Positions 12,956-57,928 of a stretch of DNA of 64,000 nt are shown here, piece by piece. The notes under the pieces were generated by a model. That model did not search any database. It was not told where the DNA came from and was given only the letters and a program-made list of their open reading frames with translations. Where the stretch lies: NCBI GenBank assembly GCA_008632985.1, contig QPGO01000038.1, positions 397,939-461,938 on the forward strand, written 5' to 3'. How positions within the stretch are numbered: the first letter of the stretch is position 1; each line of letters starts with the position of its first letter. A program made the position numbers and the translations under genes. The DNA comes from Psammoneis japonica (Eukaryota).

Positions 12956-13109
12956 GCTGAAGCGATGGCGTTCTAGCGTAACTTCTAAAAAGGGAATCGA
13001 TTTATAATCACTAGATTCCGTCGGCTTGACTTCTGTTTCATCGCCTTTCAATGTGTTGATCGACAGCATGGTTTCAGCTTGTCGAACAAGTTTAGTGATG
13101 TGGGATACT

Positions 13110-14750
13110 CTCACACCAGTTCGGCTCACATGTCTGGTCATTTTGGCGAGCACACATTGGCAGGTCTTCCCTCCGCGCCATTCTCGTTCCCTGCTCTAGC
13201 TCTGGCAGCTAGTGGCAGGGCCCAACACAATTGTGCAGTGCACCATGTTGGTTTGGCATGAATTGAATGATGATTGTGCATTGATTGCAGGAAGAACTTC
13301 ACTTGGTTGGAAATTTTCTCACTGTCATGAGAACATTCACCGCAGCCATGGTGGTTGAGTGGTGGAAGAGTCTGCTTTAATTTCAGAAACTGTTTTTGCC
13401 AACACACCCATTGTTGCCCATTGCATTTTTTGTTGAACACTTGTGTTGTGTGACATTTGGCTGCATTCCAGAGAGCTGGCCAAAACAGTGGTGCTGACCA
13501 GATTTTAGAATGGGTGCAGTGGCACATTCTCTGGTGGCTCCAATTGACCAATGCAGAACACCAAGTGCAACAGCAACAACAAAGCTCAAATGCACACCGC
13601 CAAAACACTCCACTTGGGCTGCACAACAATTGTGCCACAGAGAGAGCAGGCCAAGCCAGCAACTGAGTTTCAGAGCAGGTGTGAGAAAAAATGCTTTCTC
13701 TGGCAACTGCAGCTAACAAAGGCAAAACATCAAGTGCAACACAGCAAAATGATCATTTTGTTGGCACCCAGCAAGTGAACATTGTCAAAGCACACAAAAA
13801 TCAAGCAGAGATGTTCCAACCCAGGAGTTCACAAAATGTGCAAGTGTGTCTTGTGCTAATCAACACAATGCAAACAAACAATTGGGTGGTCAAAGCTGGA
13901 GAATGAAATTGCAAATGAGAGATTGTGCCAGGAACAAGCACCTCACAACAAATGAGCATTTTGTGAGCACCGCGCAAATTCGTTCAAAGGCAATGATGAC
14001 AAACAGCACTGTCTGCAAAGCAAGAAACAAGGAGGGTTGGCTTTGCAAAATGGTGATGGCAGCCTGTTGCATGGTGCTCAGCTCTGCTGTGTTGCGCTTG
14101 TGTGGCCACTTGTTGGTGTCACAAAGCAAAAGCTGGAACACCCTCAAATGGCCTCTCACGCTTTTTCTCTTGTGACAAAATGACAACCTTTTCCCATGAG
14201 GACAAGCACAAAACAGACATCTTCATTTGTTTTGCTGGAGCAACAAAAATGCTCAGCCATTGAAAGCGAATGAAGTCGCCCTCTGCGTGGGGCGCGGGGC
14301 CAGAGCCAGCTCGCACACACCTGTGGAAAGCTGAAGAGCTCGAGAAATCTTTGAGTGTCTTTGCTCCCCACATCCATGAATCCTCTCTGTTGGGAGGAAC
14401 ACAAAACTGCATTCACATTTGCCATGGTCAAAAAGTGCTGAAAACAATGACTTTTGTGCGGGGAGAGCGACAGAGCTCTGCTCGAAGGCTCCCAGACTGT
14501 GCCCCTCTGGCGGCAAGTGAGTCAGGAGGAGGCAGCATTTCTGAGCATTTTGGGGCACCACCCTGCAAGCTCCCACAGTTTTTTTTTAATTGTTTGGAAA
14601 CTCACAGTGTCCTTTCATTGGCTGCGACTTCAGTGTCAGATTCAGAATGGAGCTGGAGCCGCGCTTCCAGTTGTCGCCACTGCCAGTGGTCGGTCCTGAT
14701 GGGTCGCACGCGTCTGCTCGCTCGTGCGGTCGTTTTCGCTCACCAGGGAA
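13110..14750. other. TpA/CpG-depleted, TpG/CpA-rich degenerate tract A
   Basis: About 7 TA dinucleotides in ~1.6 kb by manual count, all YTAR; few CG in 13200-14250; translations within the tract lack Tyr and are Cys/His rich. Confidence 0.9.
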
Positions 14751-15140
14751 GGCATAAGGGATCGTTTGTCATAAGTCATTTCGCTTTAGACATATGTATG
14801 TCTACATGAAATGCCAGTTTCAGCATAAGTATTTTAAATCATATATCACCTTTTCCGCGAATGAGAATAATGATCATGTCTTGCTGTTTTTCGGAATGAC
14901 TTCAGGACATTTCATTCGTTAAGTAAATACTAAATTACGTCGTGGCGATAGTGCGAATGTGACAAATTAGTCAGTCACAATAAAAAATGATGTTGTGATC
15001 ATTTATCAAACGAGAATTCGAGAGTCTTTCGAGACCACTTCGTCAAATCACTTCTCGTTTCTCTCACAAAAAAACAAAATCATAAAGAGAGAACACTTAC
15101 GAGAAACCCATAACGTTGACTCTTCACTTTTTAGACAACC

Positions 15141-16468
15141 ATGCGTTTCCTTTCCCTTGCTTTCCTGTTGGCCGCTTGCGCCATTGGCGTCAGTGGATCG
15201 GTCGCTGAGGACAACAATGCCTCAGTAAGTGCTACATGAAAAACGGAGTCTTTCTCATATTGTATTATCCCCGTTCTCATTTGCATTCCTTGCTCGCCTA
15301 GCAGGTGCAGCTTGAAGACCTATATGAAGGTGGTCCTGTTGAAGAAGAACAAGATGGCGCTGTCGTCTTGGAAGGAGACGAGCAAGAGCATCGGAATTTA
15401 CGACGTACGCGACCCTCTCAAAGGAATAGAGGTGTCTTGCCCAAAGGTGTCAGAAAAGTGACGAATTCCGATGGCACGAGCACCTATATAATGAGTGTTT
15501 ATGTCTGGTACTGGTTGGGGGCGAAAGACTTGTGCATCAATCCTATCGAGTGGTGCAACTCTAAAGTTATCGAAGAGTTTGAATTCGCAAATTTGTACCA
15601 AGACGAACCTGATGCGAGTGCGGTCTACGCAATGGTGGAAGCTGGGGCCACCTGCTGGGCACAGGCTAAGTCCCTCACAAGGCTGAACGCCATGGTTCTT
15701 GGGCAAGCCGAACTCACCGTCAACCAAATAGGACGTATCGGGCCAATTCCAGAAGTCAATTTCAAATCGAAGTTGCACACGTGTACACTGTCTGTGGCAT
15801 TCGCCCGAAGTGAGTCCGAAGCTGCAGCTTTCTCCCAAGGGACAGCTGGTGCAGCGGTTGAACCGAATGCAATGTGCCAAAACCTCCCGCGTAATCACAG
15901 GTGGATCAGGCATCGTATGTGTACCGAAGGATATGGGGAAGTGGAAGCTACTGGCGAGGCTGATGCTGTCAGCACCTCTTCCGCTTTTTCCCGTTCGCTT
16001 GCAGAGTCCAGAAATTCTCAGCTAGTAAGCGTGATATCCAAAGGCAGGAGTATCAATTTCTTTGAGGCTGTTGTGGTAGGAGGAGCGTCGAGCTTCACTC
16101 AGTCCAGAGCCAAAACGGTTACTTCTGCCATCACAGACGTCGTCGCCGATGCAGATGGTTACACTTGGATTCAAAATTGCATAGAGTGGCTGGTGGATTT
16201 CTGCGGTAGCCACCCGTTCCCTTGGTGCAAGCCAGTTAAAATCGACGAGTATTGTAGAGATGCAGAAGCGGAGGCCTATACCAGGGTCAGCGCCAAGGCC
16301 GACGCTTTTTCCAAGGCTGTTGCGGCATCATTCGGAAACCTCGAAGTTTCAGTTGCATTGAACGCGTATTTGAAACGCAACGAAATTACGGGTGCAATTG
16401 ACATGGGCTTGAACAAGGATTCCGGTTTTTCTGCAGGAGTCGTCACCACCTGTAGAGCTAAGACCTAG
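15141..16468 (+). CDS. Secreted Ala/Ser-rich Cys-containing protein of unknown function; exons 15141-15224 and 15305-16468
   Basis: Exon 1 MRFLSLAFLLAACAIGVSG is a signal peptide; phase-0 intron gtaagt..gcag (80 nt); acidic pro-region ending RNLR. Confidence 0.85.
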
Positions 16469-17359
16469 AAAGAACGATGGAATGCGTTGAGCGAACAGGG
16501 GCGATGAGGTCGTCTTTTCGCTGGGTGTTGAACGATTGTTTGGAAGTGCATGTTTAGTGGAGATCATTAGTAAAAGATGGAGTTACTCAAACGGTCTCAT
16601 CGTGAGTGACACAAGTTGATGGGAGAAGATGGCTTGAATATTGTCTCGCAAATTGATATTACGTAGTTTAGCAAGTATTTGTCTGTGTTCAGTAGTGAAG
16701 CTAAACTTAAAACTCTAGAGTATTGATAACCTTAGGATCTGATTGTGGGCAGTCCCGATCCAACGACCGCAACAACCCCACAGCGACGATGGCGATGGTG
16801 TTTGTTTGCTGTGGGGGAGTGTGTGGAGGCGCCGATGAGATGCGAAGGGCTGCAACATTCTAGAGGTGATTGCTGGGTGACTGTAGGAAGGAATCTCCAT
16901 ACCTGTGATACCGTATTTCATGGCAAGGAGGATCGAATGGAAATAGAGCAGTCCTGGCACTCTATGTTTACTCTCTAGTAGCTGCTCTAGAGTAACTACT
17001 CTCTAGATGGTAGAGGCTCTTATTGGAGAGTAGAACACCTTCACTTTATCAACCGTATACCGGTACGTCGTCCGGAACCACGATTCACAACCGCAGTAGA
17101 GGTGATCACGGGAATAGATACATCGACTGGCATAATGAATATGATCATAATTTCCACGATTGAACAGCTCACACAAATCCCGGATCGGGCAAGATTTGGC
17201 TCCAATGAAGCTGCACCTTCGACAAAAGAAACTGTTCGGCAACTCTTTGCACCAACAAGAGTCCCATCCTTTACAATGCCATGCCTCTTTGACAATCGCT
17301 TTTTCAAGAGATGTGTTGAGAGGGAAGTGCGCGACATGCAACATTCGTTTGCCCCGCCG

Positions 17360-18400
17360 ACGATGACAATCATTGAAACATTGATGCTCCTTGTGTGGTG
17401 CATCATTGTCACATTGACTTCGCTGCCACACTTGGTCCTGCATGAGGAAAATGTGTTTAAAGCAACACAGGATGGCGATGCAACCAGGGTGCGAAGCAAG
17501 CAATCTCGGCATTCAAGCCGTGTCTTGCAGTGGCAGCGGCAAGAAGGGTGGCAAGAAGGGTGGCAGTGGTGGCAAGAAGGCTGGCAGCGCCAGCAACAAG
17601 GAAGGGTGCATCACCGTGCCCTCTGCGACAGCGGCACCGACAACTGGTCCAACGCCAAAATTTGCCCTTGCACCTCCATTGACAGACCCGATTTGAGTGA
17701 CCTCATCGCCGTCACAACGTCCAACGTCTTTGCCGACACCTCCTCCAACACCGCCACCGTCACCTCGTCCTGGTCCTCAGCCAACACCACAGCCATCACC
17801 TCATCCCACTCCTCAGCCAACACCACAGCCATCCCCAACTCTGACCACAAGGCCCGCACCCAACCCTGCATGCCCTCCAATGCCTGGACCAACAACACCT
17901 CCCCCTGCAATGCCGATTGTGCCACTGATGCCTTCGCCATTGAGCATTTGAACCTAACTGCCAACTCCTCAACTGTCGCTTCCTCCACTGACATGTCCTC
18001 ACACTTTAAATCCAACAGAAATGCCAGTGCCCCCACCAGTGCTGCTGCTGCCAACAAAGCAACCGACTGCCCCTCCAACTCCAGCACCGATGCCTCCACC
18101 AACTCCAGCACCGATGCCTCTGCCAACTCCACCTCAAACAATGCAACCAACACCCCCACCAAATCTAGCACCATCACCACCACCCACAAAAGAGAGCCAA
18201 CAGCTCCTCCAACACCACAGCCAACCCCACAACCAATGACGGAACCAACGTCCAGGCCTGCAAGCGCTCCAACCAATGCTCCGACGGGGGTTTCTGACAC
18301 AATCTCCTTCAAAAGCACCATCCAAATCACCTTCTGCAGCACCGAGTGACATGCCGTCATGGTTGCCTTCCTTCTCATGGAAGATTCTCGTTGCATCTCA
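17360..18400 (+). pseudogene. Decayed silaffin/mucin-like cell-wall protein gene (RxL, GKKGGKKG, Pro/Thr repeats)
   Basis: Hydrophobic N-terminus, SRVL, SGSGKKGGKKGGSGGKKAG, then PT repeats across frameshifts with Met/Leu at expected Thr/Pro positions. Confidence 0.7.
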
Positions 18401-19310
18401 TGACAGCTTGGATTTGGGATGCGCGCAACACAAATGGTGATGCCTGGCATGATGATGTTGTTGTTTGATTTTCTCAAGGCAAGTGCAGCTGAGTGGCTGA
18501 AGGAAAAAAGGAAAGGACAAAAATCACACCACACATGATGATGCTCAGCAGTGGAGCAACAGGTGTTGGAGGACAATCTTGGGATTTTTGGCCAGCTTCG
18601 TTGGATTGAGAAGTGAGCCCAAATGGAGCAGCCATGTCAAGCCATGCAGGGGTGAGGAAAGCACTCATGATGCTGGAGCAACAGAGCTGCAATGCTGAAG
18701 GAGGACAAAAGAGCTCATCCTCAAAGTGCTGCTGCTCCACCTGTGGATTGAACTCACAAATGCTGATGCCAGATCAGGCAAGAGGCTTGTTGTAGATTTT
18801 CAGATTCTGTGCACAAAATCACAGAACCTTTCATGCATGGCAAATGGCAGCAACAAAAGGCCAAACACGATGGGGGGTTGCTTCACCCAGACATTCAAAT
18901 CCATCAACTCTGATGTCAGTGACAAAATCAGGGATGCATCATTGAAGATTCAAGGTTGGTGAGTTGCATCACCATTTTTTGAATGATTTCATCATTTGCA
19001 CATTTGATTGAGCCCCACCCTCCTGTGCCATCTGTTGACAGGGGGTGGACAATCCTGAAGACTTGCAGAAATGGAGAAGGAATGGGAGCAGCTGAAGCAA
19101 CAAGCTGGGGCTGCAGAGACAGACACCAACATGGATGGCTTTTTGTTGGTGGGAGATGCACCCAACTCAGGCTCCACAAGTGATTCTCAAGGTTCTAGAA
19201 GAGACACAATGGAACATCAAGGATCATCATTGACTTTTGCTGCTGTCGAGCAACTGCCATCACTGTCACTCAACATTGTGATGGGTTCAAACCAAGATGT
19301 CTCCCATCAT

Positions 19311-19557
19311 TCTGATGCACCAGCTCCAGAAGGAATGAACATGGAGATGCCAGCATCCAACTGCAGTGCACAACTTGAACAGCAGAAACAAATCCTGACA
19401 TTGGCACAGTGGCGCGCACTTCAATGCAGATGCCAAATGCACTTGACCAAGAATCTTGTGGAGTCAAGCCTCAACATGCAAGTGGCTTCTTCAGATGCAT
19501 TGGCTCCAGAAGGAATGCACATGGAGAAAACAGCATCAAACTGTGCAGCGCACAATG
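19311..19557 (+). repeat. Diverged ~65-bp direct repeat pair, 180-bp period
   Basis: tctgatgcaccagctccagaaggaatgaacatggaga (19311) versus tcagatgcattggctccagaaggaatgcacatggaga (19491). Confidence 0.85.
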
Positions 19558-21189
19558 ACCTGGCACCACTCTTGCTGCTGCATTAGAAAGAAACACCAAC
19601 AGTGGCAGTGGCACACATTTCAACAATGATGCCAAATGCACATGGCCAACTGTCTCACACCATTTTGCATGTTTCTTGTGTGGAGTTCAGACTCAAGAAT
19701 CAAACAACTTCTGATGATGGCAATGAGCACCACACAGACACACCCAGTGACAAGATCACAGGAAATCCCAAATTGCCACCTCAAGCTGCTTTGGAATCAA
19801 CAAAGTCGCTGGCATCCAACTGCCATGACATCCAGCTGTAGAAGCCACTGGCAACAACTCTGTGCTGCCATGCATGAGGCAACCATGAGTCAGCAAACTT
19901 GCCAGCAGCACATGCTTTGAGTGTTTTAGAAGGGTTGCAATGCCAAAACAAATTTGCAACAAAATGATGGCAAGCAAGCCTGTCAAAGACCCAGAGAAGG
20001 GGTGTCTTCCAAGTCCAGCAATGCCTGCACATCTGTGCAGAAATTGCCAGAAATGCAGACAGATTGTCTCTGCAGATCCTGCGTGTTCTGTGCACGCTTG
20101 CTGTTCAACAGTGCATTGATTTTACAACAGGCTGCAAATTGGATTTTGTCTTGTTCATGAGCAACATTGTTTGCACCATGAGGTGCTGGGGTTTTGTGTG
20201 CCAAATTGTTGGGTTCTGTGACTGTGTGGTTTCTGTGCAGGTGCCGCACACCATTTTGTTCCACATGTTGGTCTGCCCATCCATCCATCACTTCTGTCAA
20301 TTGTGTTTGTGCAGTGGCTGTGCTGCCCCAAAAGTCCTTTTTCTCATTTGTTGTTGCTGGCCATTGTTGCAGCAGACATTGCCTGCCATGAACATGCAAG
20401 AGCTCTGGCACAGCCACACACATGTGATTGCTGCTGGCTGCCATTGTGCCCATGTCTCCAGAGGTGGGAGAAGTGGACAAGGGGAGCCACAACACCAAGG
20501 CAGTGGCTGCATCTCTTCAACTCCTTTTTGAAGAATTTTCAGCGGACAGATGATGGATGCTTGGCTCCTCATGATGCAGACCCCTCTTCATTTCAGGACC
20601 AACGACCACCAATGCTGTTGAAGCCTGTGTCAAACTTTCTGAACACCTTGCAGCTGCCTGAGCAAGATGCCACAATGGACTTTTAACCTGAAAACATTGG
20701 TGATGCCATGGATGAAAGCAGAAAAAAAAGAACGAATGCCCTGACAAAACATCTGAGGGCAATGATGAACAGAAACAAAACAGAGCCAGACAATGAACCA
20801 TCAACAATGCCAGAGCATGTGGCGCACACTTGCCTTGTCAGTGTGGTTGATTTTGTGTGCTGGCCAAGGCAACACCAAGCCAGGTGAGAAAGTTCCTTGG
20901 CACTTGCTTTGCCAATGCAAGGTCAAAAAACCTGGCATTCTTGGAGAAGCAGCAACATGCAAGGTGACTGTGCTGCAGGAATTGAAGCCTCAAACACTGC
21001 AAACAAAAGCAACACATGAACAACACCCACCAATCTGATTTGCACACTGGCGCCCATTGTCATGACCATTTTGTGTTGCAAGCAAAGCCATGGTTGGGGC
21101 CCAGTCATTCATGGAGTCAGCACTTGAGAGGGTCAAGGACAGAAGTGACACAGGAGAAAGCAAAGCTGTGTGTGCTTTTTGGTCAGTGA

Positions 21190-21430
21190 GTCAGTCTTTG
21201 GACAATTCACTTTGGGCATTGACCGATGGTGAGCTTGCCCAACTGGCCAATGATGAGCTTTCAAAAATTGGGTTGGTGGAGACCAATCAGCTGTGGATGG
21301 AGTGGTGCACACAGGGTTCTGCAGGCTTGTCCTGTCTTTTGTGAAACCACCGAGAGGCCATTGAGATGATCCATGAATGTGTCGCCACATCGTTCACCAG
21401 TCTTCAGACCACAGGATGGGATGGTGGTCA
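21190..21430 (+). pseudogene. Fragment of the C-terminus of a bacterial-type FAD-dependent oxidoreductase (protoporphyrinogen-oxidase-like, PRK07208-type)
   Basis: LWALTDGELAQLANDELSKIGLV..VDGVV..RVLQACPV..IHECV..LQTTGWDG matches the recalled family pattern LW..SDEEL..LA..EL..IGL...VDG.VVRVPKAYPV..IREY...LQTIGRNG. Confidence 0.65.
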
Positions 21431-22005
21431 GGGTGCCTCCTTTCAAGCCTCTGCCTCCATCTCCACAAAGCTGTCCAACCAACAGACAAAACGGCAGACA
21501 CACCCGGGCTTGGTGCCCACAGCAGCTCTCAGTCGTGTGCATGGAGATCTCCTCTGGCTGACGGGGAAGCTGAGCCGTGTCCCAAGCCACGCAGTTGCTT
21601 CAGCTGCAGACCCGGTCCTCCGGCGTGGTATCCGAAATCATGGGCTGTTTCCCAGTGCCGGAAGTGCCCCCCGCCCCGGCTCATCATGAAGACCGGCTAC
21701 ACCCGCTGCCCTTCCTCTGGAAGATGCCGGGCGAAAACCCAGGCAGAGATTTTGCATTGAGCATTTTAGAACTCAAATCGACCGTGGTTCGGCAAAAACA
21801 GTCAGTTGAAAATGTAATGACACATTATAAAGCACCAATTAAAAAGCAATTGCGGCTACAACAAACCGACAACCGCAACATACAACACACAACATTGTGT
21901 GCTTTCTTTGGTTGACAGCACACCGGGGACATTAGTCCGACTAGTTCTTCATAGCACAAACTGAACCATCCCTCGGTCAACCAAGGGCACCATCCGCGCG
22001 TGGTT

Positions 22006-30600: not shown

Positions 30601-30892
30601 CGTAGTTCACAATCAGAAGCCTGTACTTTGTATGTTTTATATCTATTCGCTTTGGATAATAGCAAATCCGTAACAGTCGAGAAACTGGATTTTATCTTGT
30701 TCATGAGGAACGTTTACACCACGAATAAATGTATTTACTAATGGATAAATACGTATAAAAGAACGGATGTCAAACCATACGGATTTTGAATCCCACGTCT
30801 CCCACGCTCACCTCCACCCCCAAAGCCACACATCAAGGATCATCTCACTTTCTCTCTGTTGTTGTGATCGATAGAGCAAGTACTGTCACCAT

Positions 30893-56743: not shown

Positions 56744-57928
56744 TTACACAACACCGTCGGCCCTTAAGTTCCCCTGAATAAATTTCGGTTCCTCCATTGT
56801 GTCAGGGCTTTTTCGTGAAAACGTCACAGTCGGGAGCAATCCCATTTCATCTTGGGCATAGCACAAGTACTGAAGAAAAGTTTTGGACATTTCAAATGGT
56901 TGGTACAGAAATGGGTGCATTTCATCAATAAGAATACAGGGTTGATCTGCTCCGCGAGCTTCGGCAACGCCAAACATGCGTTCTTCGAACCCAAAGGTCA
57001 AAGTGATGGCCTAGAGCCACGAAGCACATTAGTGATTTCCCACAGCATGTTTGATACTTCTTCTTCATAGTAGAGTGCAACATCAGCAACGGTTGTCGGT
57101 TCCGATCGAACAGCTCCTACTAAATTAAAAACGGCATCCAAGACTGTTTGCTCCCACTGCAAGAATCGTTTCGAGGCATAAGAGTGAGGGCCTGAAGAAA
57201 AGAATACAATTGGCGTTGGCATATGCATCACCTATTGTATACTCACCATAGTCGCTTCCATTCCCTGTAGAAACCAGTCTTGCATCGAATAGCGTTTGAT
57301 TCTAGTCGATTTTCAATAGCTCCGCACCATTTCCCGCATGCTGCACACTCTCCGGCCCACTTTTCGCTCCCATCTCCAGCAGTGCCAAGATTCACAGAGG
57401 TATCTTCATCAGAGTACCAGAAACTTTAATACCTGGTATGAGAACTTGCGTCATGGAGTCCCGAGCATACCCAAAGTCTTTTAGGACAGCTTCAATGTTT
57501 CCGCATTCCAATCCGCCAGAAAAGAATACTAAATCTTCTCGGCGAGATTTTAACCCCTCGGGCAGATTTTTGAGATACTCCTTTAGTTGAGTGGGAGGGA
57601 TTGTAATGTAGATTGGGAAAGATCCACTGGCATCAGCTGGAATGTCCTGATCCGGCGTCAGAACCATGTCATCGCCTTGACCCATGCGGACAAGAGCGTC
57701 TGCTACGGTTGTCGGTCCTTCCAAAGGCTTGACAATGACACAAGGTCCATCTTTTGCTTTTTCAATCTCTTGCTTTCCTGACTGTAAGAACGCTTGATAC
57801 TCCATCGTCGCTCTGTTGTCAGACCATGTTGCCTGCAACTGACTAGTGCTGGAGGCGGTCCAACCCGCCGCGGTTGATGCGGGCGAAAATCCAGTAGCCT
57901 CTTGCAACAGAAACGCCGCGGAAANCAT
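56744..57928 (-). CDS. Plastid-targeted ketopantoate-reductase-like protein (At1g16080-like family); intron ~57157-57246, frameshifts, N at 57925
   Basis: ATG-F-SP presequence; PIYI, R.DLVF, GKW, WE..V.....LVGA, TV.DV...Y..EV and F..EER. Confidence 0.6.

Follow-up and report, generated by a model that had tools for sequence, protein, structure and literature searches.

Hypermutation restricted to TpA has been described for viral DNA integrated in the genome of a rhizarian alga, Bigelowiella natans (Mettrop et al., bioRxiv 10.64898/2026.01.13.699255). The preprint puts forward adenine deamination by an adenosine deaminase as a hypothesis, with an ADAT2-like protein as the candidate, and reports mutation-accumulation lines in which the rate was raised about 1000-fold. 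The locus described here, from a diatom, shows the same kind of TpA loss with a matching gain of TpG/CpA in local blocks: the apparent change is TpA>TpG/CpA, TpA-poor windows rich in CpA/TpG are clustered, and the DNA is silent. It differs from the B. natans case, as far as the preprint describes it, in its host, in the near-complete erasure of TpA, in a paired loss of CpG, in a flank rule, in sharp borders and in covering a copy of a host gene. Hypermutation of TpA to TpG/CpA is already described in the rhizarian, and the feature here is real; this window adds a border-by-border quantification and a test of rate versus reach. The main text of the preprint contains no occurrence of 'CpG', 'diatom' or 'context', and the mutation table of its supplement may bear on the flank rule and the borders. 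Beyond this preprint, searches of the literature outside subscription journals listed nothing on TpA hypermutation in diatoms or on nested TA/CG borders.

In diatoms, islands of transposable elements (TEs) carry DNMT5-dependent CG methylation (PMC9998398). The tracts resemble these islands, as described there, in being isolated and silent within a CpG-normal genome and in the conversion of CG to TG/CA, which has left their cores with 0.10-0.12 of the expected CG, as for decay of 5mCpG; however, such decay cannot remove TpA, and the tracts, unlike the methylated islands, are known here from sequence alone. RIP (repeat-induced point mutation), which leaks into single-copy flanks (PMC9453070, PMC2621366), likewise directs transitions at silent or repeated DNA, favours particular dinucleotides and spills into neighbours. 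However, RIP as reported changes C:G to T:A, mostly at CpA, and creates TpA, whereas the tracts have lost TpA (o/e 0.04) and show no CpA>TpA change with TpA gain, so that RIP is ruled out as the cause. Adenine base editors derived from TadA prefer YAY over YAR (PMC12528748); according to that report they convert A to G in DNA where a pyrimidine precedes the A, and less strongly where a purine follows it, in agreement with the survival of YTAR in the tracts. Unlike the process seen here, they are engineered and also edit CA. The likeness may serve as a lead to the enzyme class and is not an identification.

All of the analysis is confined to one window, by which we mean the whole 64-kb stretch of DNA, with two tracts (A and B) and their four edges. 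The window is eukaryotic, gene-dense and about 47% GC, with a single N in the assembly at 57925; no tRNA was found in it. Its AIM24 protein gave 119 matches, the named ones, a minority, being mostly from diatoms (Thalassiosira, Cyclotella, Cylindrotheca, Amphora, Seminavis), also from Rhodomonas and Polarella. A likelihood scan retrieved two strong TA-poor segments, 13213-14753 (score 50) and 17155-21626 (score 155), the next best scoring 8, and two strong CG-poor segments, 13192-14261 (score 47) and 18426-21487 (score 133), with 17771-18237 third at 10.9. Both tracts, A at about 13.1-14.75 kb and B at about 17.15-21.63 kb, are depleted of TA and CG and fill intergenic space, with gaps of about 150-700 bp to the neighbouring coding regions (Table 1). 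TA density within them is 2-3 per kb versus 40 per kb, and they are the only two strong blocks in the 64 kb.

Table 1. Features of the two tracts and of the DNA between them (observed counts are given over expected counts)
Feature	Position	Strand	Remarks
Left rim, tract A	13107..13190		Susceptible TA 0; CG kept (n=5); weak alone
Core, tract A	13215..14260		TA 4/45.0, CG 7/60.7; converged on TG/CA
Right margin, tract A	14261..14753		TA 1/18.8, CG 24/24.7
Unconverted intact gene between tracts	15141..16468	+	Secreted-type protein; inferred intron 15225-15304; several paralogs
Outer left margin, tract B	17152..17760		TA 2/25.5, CG 32/35.4; sharp TA border at about 17150
Broken gene copy (secreted Gly/Lys- and Pro/Thr-repeat protein)	17363..18373	+	In-frame stops, frameshifts
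Inner left margin, tract B	17761..18430		TA 3/27.3, CG 18/37.8 (half lost)
Core, tract B	18431..21340		TA 7/122.8, CG 16/165.2
Right margin, tract B	21341..21627		TA 0/11.5, CG 12/15.2

A sequence-only reading of this DNA had described tract edges in which CG is still frequent and TA already absent, quoting the words cggatcgggc, cccgccgacg and gtcgcacgcg, all three of which are present. Against a background of 22000-64000 (o/e of 0.57 for TA and 1.01 for CG), the counts hold with two qualifications. TA is nearly rather than wholly gone from the edges, with n=2 (o/e 0.06) in 17160-17760, n=0 in 21340-21620 and n=1 (0.04) in 14260-14745, and CG, with n=31 (0.74), 10 (0.43) and 24 (0.67), respectively, is not uniformly intact: relative to expectation it stands at 0.90 when the outer margins are pooled, 0.48 in 17761-18430 (outer versus inner, p=0.02) and 0.10 in the core. 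The cores lack both dinucleotides, as had been claimed (TA n=7, o/e 0.04, and CG n=16, o/e 0.10, in 18450-21340; TA n=5 and CG n=7, o/e 0.13, in 13200-14260). The TA counts of the margins are not due to chance, because no background window of margin size gets so low, the minima being 8 among 5595 windows of 490 bp, 11 among 5560 of 606 bp and 2 among 5656 of 288 bp. Within the right margin of tract A, CG is at 0.64 of expectation in 14261-14650, and a CG-rich rim occupies 14651-14753; this rim, upstream of the 15.1-kb gene, has 12 CG versus 5.8 expected and is without TA. Beyond the right margin of tract B lies a fuzzy fringe, 21627-21810, with 3 TA for 6.5 expected.

The losses of TA and CG are balanced by gains of TG and CA. 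The four YR steps (TA, CG, TG and CA) total 22-25 per 100 bp both in and out of the tracts; per kb, the margins have 42 more TG/CA with 38 fewer TA and 6 fewer CG, and the cores have 95 more with 38 and 50 fewer. In the tracts, the o/e of CA+TG is 1.5-1.95. A constant YR density with a matched gain of TG/CA is the pattern expected from the transitions TA>TG/CA and CG>TG/CA; for TA, which way the change went is something that we infer here. In the outer margins pooled, 1 susceptible TA (one outside YTAR) is left where 46.6 are expected, versus 68 CG for 75.3. TA is thus missing from DNA whose CG is close to the background level, and its loss is not a by-product of CG decay, a point on which the sequence-only reading was right.

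The two losses also differ in their flank rule. Surviving TA lie in YTAR in 13 of 17 cases, versus 384 of 2317 in the background (p=1e-7), and none lies in RTAY, where about 75 would be expected, whereas CG shows no comparable sparing, with YCGR making up 2 of 23 core CG and 817 of 3193 in the background. Taken together, the counts and the flank preferences support two separable processes acting on TA and CG, as had been proposed. Survival of YTAR is the same in margins (5/13.8) and cores (8/26.5). The products are asymmetric, the edited A being followed by a pyrimidine, in the cores (p=1e-4, or p=0.028 with invariant flanks only) but not in the margins (p=0.31-0.78), so that a strand rule with TAY as the target is only suggestive. 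One surviving CTAG, at 18165-18168, reads CCAG in a paralog snippet and may be a newly arisen TA kept in the spared context. Counted on both strands, tract B has 11 TAA, 9 TAG and 0 TAT, versus 100, 79 and 104 in an equal control stretch. Two long frames, 16991-18349 (+, 452 aa) and 17611-18636 (-, 341 aa), are probably by-products of TA erasure.

Base composition was compared in several ways. GC-matched background windows contain on average 16.5, 21.1 and 7.9 TA versus 1, 2 and 0 in the margins. Compared with GC-matched windows, CG in the outer margins is lower still (0.51-0.79), a comparison in which the conversion of TA itself raises GC. An intact Pro/Thr-repeat gene in the same window has TA at 0.88 of expectation. 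The o/e of AA+TT is 1.23 in the margins, 1.21 in the cores and 1.14 outside. Mutagenesis of the WA type by polymerase eta produces A>G at both TA and AA; as AA/TT is not depleted, such a repair-polymerase signature is ruled out.

We next consider the borders. Change points fitted separately for TA and CG fall at 14755 versus 14267, 17155 versus 18426 and 21629 versus 21351, so at three of the four edges the loss of TA extends further out than that of CG, by about 490, 1,270 and 316 bp. On the left of tract A the two borders coincide (TA 13213, CG 13192) when all TA are counted. When YTAR is left out, the offsets, from left to right, are 85 (95% interval -26 to 205), 488, 1212 and 272 bp, with point estimates nested at all four edges; the first of these is weak by itself, as susceptible TA is lacking in 8.7% of background windows that are CG-rich and 85 bp long. 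The border at about 17150 is sharp: susceptible TA number 9 within 100 bp on its outer side and 0 within 100 bp on its inner side. TA is over-frequent just outside two of the borders (20 versus 11.4 expected in 14755-15000, and 25 versus 11.2 in 16900-17152), and this TA-rich, promoter-like or UTR-like DNA makes the edges at 14755 and 17150 look sharper.

When sites from all edges are binned by how far inside the TA border they lie, susceptible TA stands at 0-0.07 of expectation in every bin, part of the zero in the first bin being an artefact, as the first ~30 bp of each rim are TA-free by construction. CG is at 29/22.2 in the first 100 bp, 0.23-0.57 of expectation at 100-1,300 bp and 0.08 further in. 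The rim CG number 5, 12, 5 and 7 at the individual edges versus 5.6 expected per 100 bp, and the pooled 29/22.2 differs from 47/~111 in the next 500 bp with p=6e-6 (p=0.003 without the CG-rich right rim of tract A). At the left of tract B, the loss of CG is better described by steps than by ramps (AIC 349.5-352.1 versus 358-360); at the right of tract A, a two-step fit comes ahead of a single step and a ramp; at the right of tract B, the models tie. By AIC, two steps give the best fit both at the left of tract B and at the right of tract A. A smooth ramp of CG loss is disfavoured at the first of these edges and poorer than two steps at the second.

Most of tract B's left margin is taken up by the gene copy with Gly/Lys and Pro/Thr repeats, and paralogous contigs help to trace the origin of the sequence. 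Two sets of contigs, X1 and X2, come from one sample, which may be the one that the window itself derives from; X1 therefore does not count as independent support. The places covered by X2, which has no RNA record, resemble a transcriptome but are not taken as a sign of expression. A paralogous contig on 17067-18038 has 65+40 differing letters and frame-changing indels, and its divergence is higher inward (65/689 versus 40/247, p=0.007). However, intact paralogs, which differ by 12.7% (168/1320), are as divergent as the outer margin (65/689), so the contig is not a clean parent and the inward rise is weak. Among the 40 of 843 paralog differences listed, none lies in the margins, and the sites polarised are CG sites, 18175 and 18187, and no TA. 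Aligned by eye, both are CA in the window, CG in one paralog and TG in another, which would most simply reflect independent decay of CG.

Homology to the paralogs stops at 18373 in both X1 and X2. The CG step at 18426 is about 50 bp away, so that the largest CG border tracks a shift in where the sequence came from. At 14255, adjoining the CG border at the right of tract A (14264-14267), an X1 contig comes to its end. The TA borders behave differently. One paralogous contig runs from 17067 across 17150, another joins 16538-16791 to 17177-17327, and a second X1 record, on 14555-14680 and 14872-14988, carries the homology past the right TA border of tract A into the unconverted flank. Because the TA borders at 14755 and 17150 lie inside homologous segments, we read them as domain edges that cut host-derived DNA.

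The parent protein of the broken copy was found among neither 8000 nor 160 candidates (proteins of 134-429 residues). As for a foreign origin of the target, as in B. natans, the cores gave no Pfam match in six of six frames each (12 of 12 together), and a gene copy of host type makes up the left margin of tract B; a metagenome scan found no relative. The core of tract B contains an old internal duplication whose period is about 180-200 bp (19310-19373/19490-19555 and 19384-19450/19585-19649, 75-82% identical), and 20136-20181 in the same core has a weak similarity to the unconverted 30682-30724 (83% over 46 bp, E=4.5e-5). The gene between the tracts has paralogous contigs in X1/X2 and otherwise only 15 distant relatives, at 21-29% identity; its protein has no Pfam match. 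A 388-aa protein had no usable match in Atlas.

The sequence-only reading had called the TA process faster or wider-reaching, and of these the first is favoured. Under one shared exposure, the outer-margin counts give a TA:CG rate ratio of about 37, and of at least 6 on conservative limits. When a single ramped exposure was simulated on the real background sequence, a ratio of 1 gave no offset, whereas at ratios of 10-1000 the median offset came to about 100-700 bp and the upper tails extended to about 1,250 bp. One domain in which the TA rate is at least 6-10 times the CG rate therefore reproduces the nesting; a wider reach is unneeded, and nesting alone is no proof of a wider footprint. High ratios are plausible because the numbers in the B. 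natans preprint imply, by our computation, about 1.2e-5 changes per TpA per generation (bioRxiv 10.64898/2026.01.13.699255), compared with a base mutation rate of 4.77e-10 given for Phaeodactylum tricornutum (PMC6604790).

We consider it reasonably probable that a fast TA mutator saturates a silent domain, that slow CpG decay trails behind, and that stepwise outward growth leaves margins of differing age. Two mutational processes of very unequal speed would then act on the same silenced intergenic domains. One would be a targeted A:T>G:C process, probably adenine deamination on DNA, that turns TpA into TpG or CpA, spares YTAR and saturates quickly wherever it is active, so that the TA border would be the high-water mark of the domain. 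The other would be the slow, ordinary decay of presumably methylated CpG to TpG/CpA, integrating the silent time of a block. The domains would have grown outward stepwise into host-derived flank, namely DNA upstream of a gene family and a gene copy that is dead, and the blocks added later, with all TA but only 0-50% of CG lost, would produce the nested footprints. Two observations run counter to this reading of rate and age. More-exposed cores should keep less YTAR, but its survival is equal in margins and cores, which fits only if YTAR is assumed to sit at a floor. Furthermore, the CG-intact rim of about 100 bp at all four edges resembles a fixed spatial offset; it fits an overreach of about nucleosome size as well as recent creep. 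Equating the loss of CG with 5mC follows the CG-methylated TE islands of diatoms (PMC9998398) and is itself conjectural, since methylated C is reported not to be more mutable in Prasinoderma (PMC11884799).

The rim may be a true overreach of the TA process, and the nesting as a whole could have the same cause. A chromatin state (for example H3K9me/H3K27me3 or a lack of transcription) that outreaches the 5mC domain by about 100 bp to 1 kb would recruit the TA mutator, so that the margins would be edited while un- or weakly methylated. The retention of rim CG at every edge and the like survival of YTAR in margin and core are consistent with this, as is the reported overlap of 5mC with H3K27me3/H3K9me in TE islands of P. 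tricornutum (PMC9998398). We nevertheless regard it, the main rival, as rather unlikely: the widths of the margins are spread about 14-fold (85-1,212 bp), the margin itself shows CG decay (0.48 at 17761-18430, and the two polarised sites), the biggest CG step falls where the sequence origin changes, and the TA-free first ~30 bp of the rim are a matter of construction.

Improbable in our judgement is a pure mosaic of insertion ages, in which younger pieces, already or soon erased of TA, were inserted beside old cores with no spread into host DNA. The distinct gene copy that ends near the CG step at the left of tract B, the end of the X1 contig next to the CG border at the right of tract A and the preference for steps over ramps all agree with it; however, the TA borders are not junctions, as three paralogous contigs span or bridge them, and the tract ends carry no terminal or direct repeats (six of six comparisons within the shuffled range). 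Duret and Galtier are said to have described, in 2000, an artefact of TpA/CpG o/e in vertebrate isochores. That the pattern here arises artefactually from composition, or as a side effect of CpG decay or T:G-mismatch repair synthesis (a polymerase-eta-like WA signature), is very improbable, for although the margins are 53-59% GC and their borders were set with hindsight, absolute TA counts in the tracts are down 15-20-fold, and the GC-matched windows, the AA+TT values, the TA-normal Pro/Thr-repeat gene and the margin counts, with TA lost where CG is intact, contradict it.

If fast TA loss followed by slow CpG decay is the correct reading, how far silencing has ever reached would be marked sharply by the TA border, with no need of a methylome, and the level of CG behind that border would be a clock, so that the spread of heterochromatin into host genes would become testable from genome sequence. 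The flank rule would provide a fingerprint by which a natural DNA adenine editor could be sought. For annotation there is a warning, in that the loss of TAA and TAG yields long false open reading frames without tyrosine. A speculative and rather doubtful extension is that diatoms carry a natural TadA/ADAT-like DNA adenine-editing defence directed at 5'-TAY, recruited independently of 5mC, which acts first, reaches at least about one nucleosome past the methylated domain and kills neighbouring host-gene copies; were it true, the survival of TA and of CG would together form a two-hand clock for the leading edge and the age of heterochromatin, readable without any methylome. More generally, TpA hypermutation would not be confined to viral inserts in one rhizarian but would also shape the silent DNA of a diatom, mechanistically apart from CpG decay.
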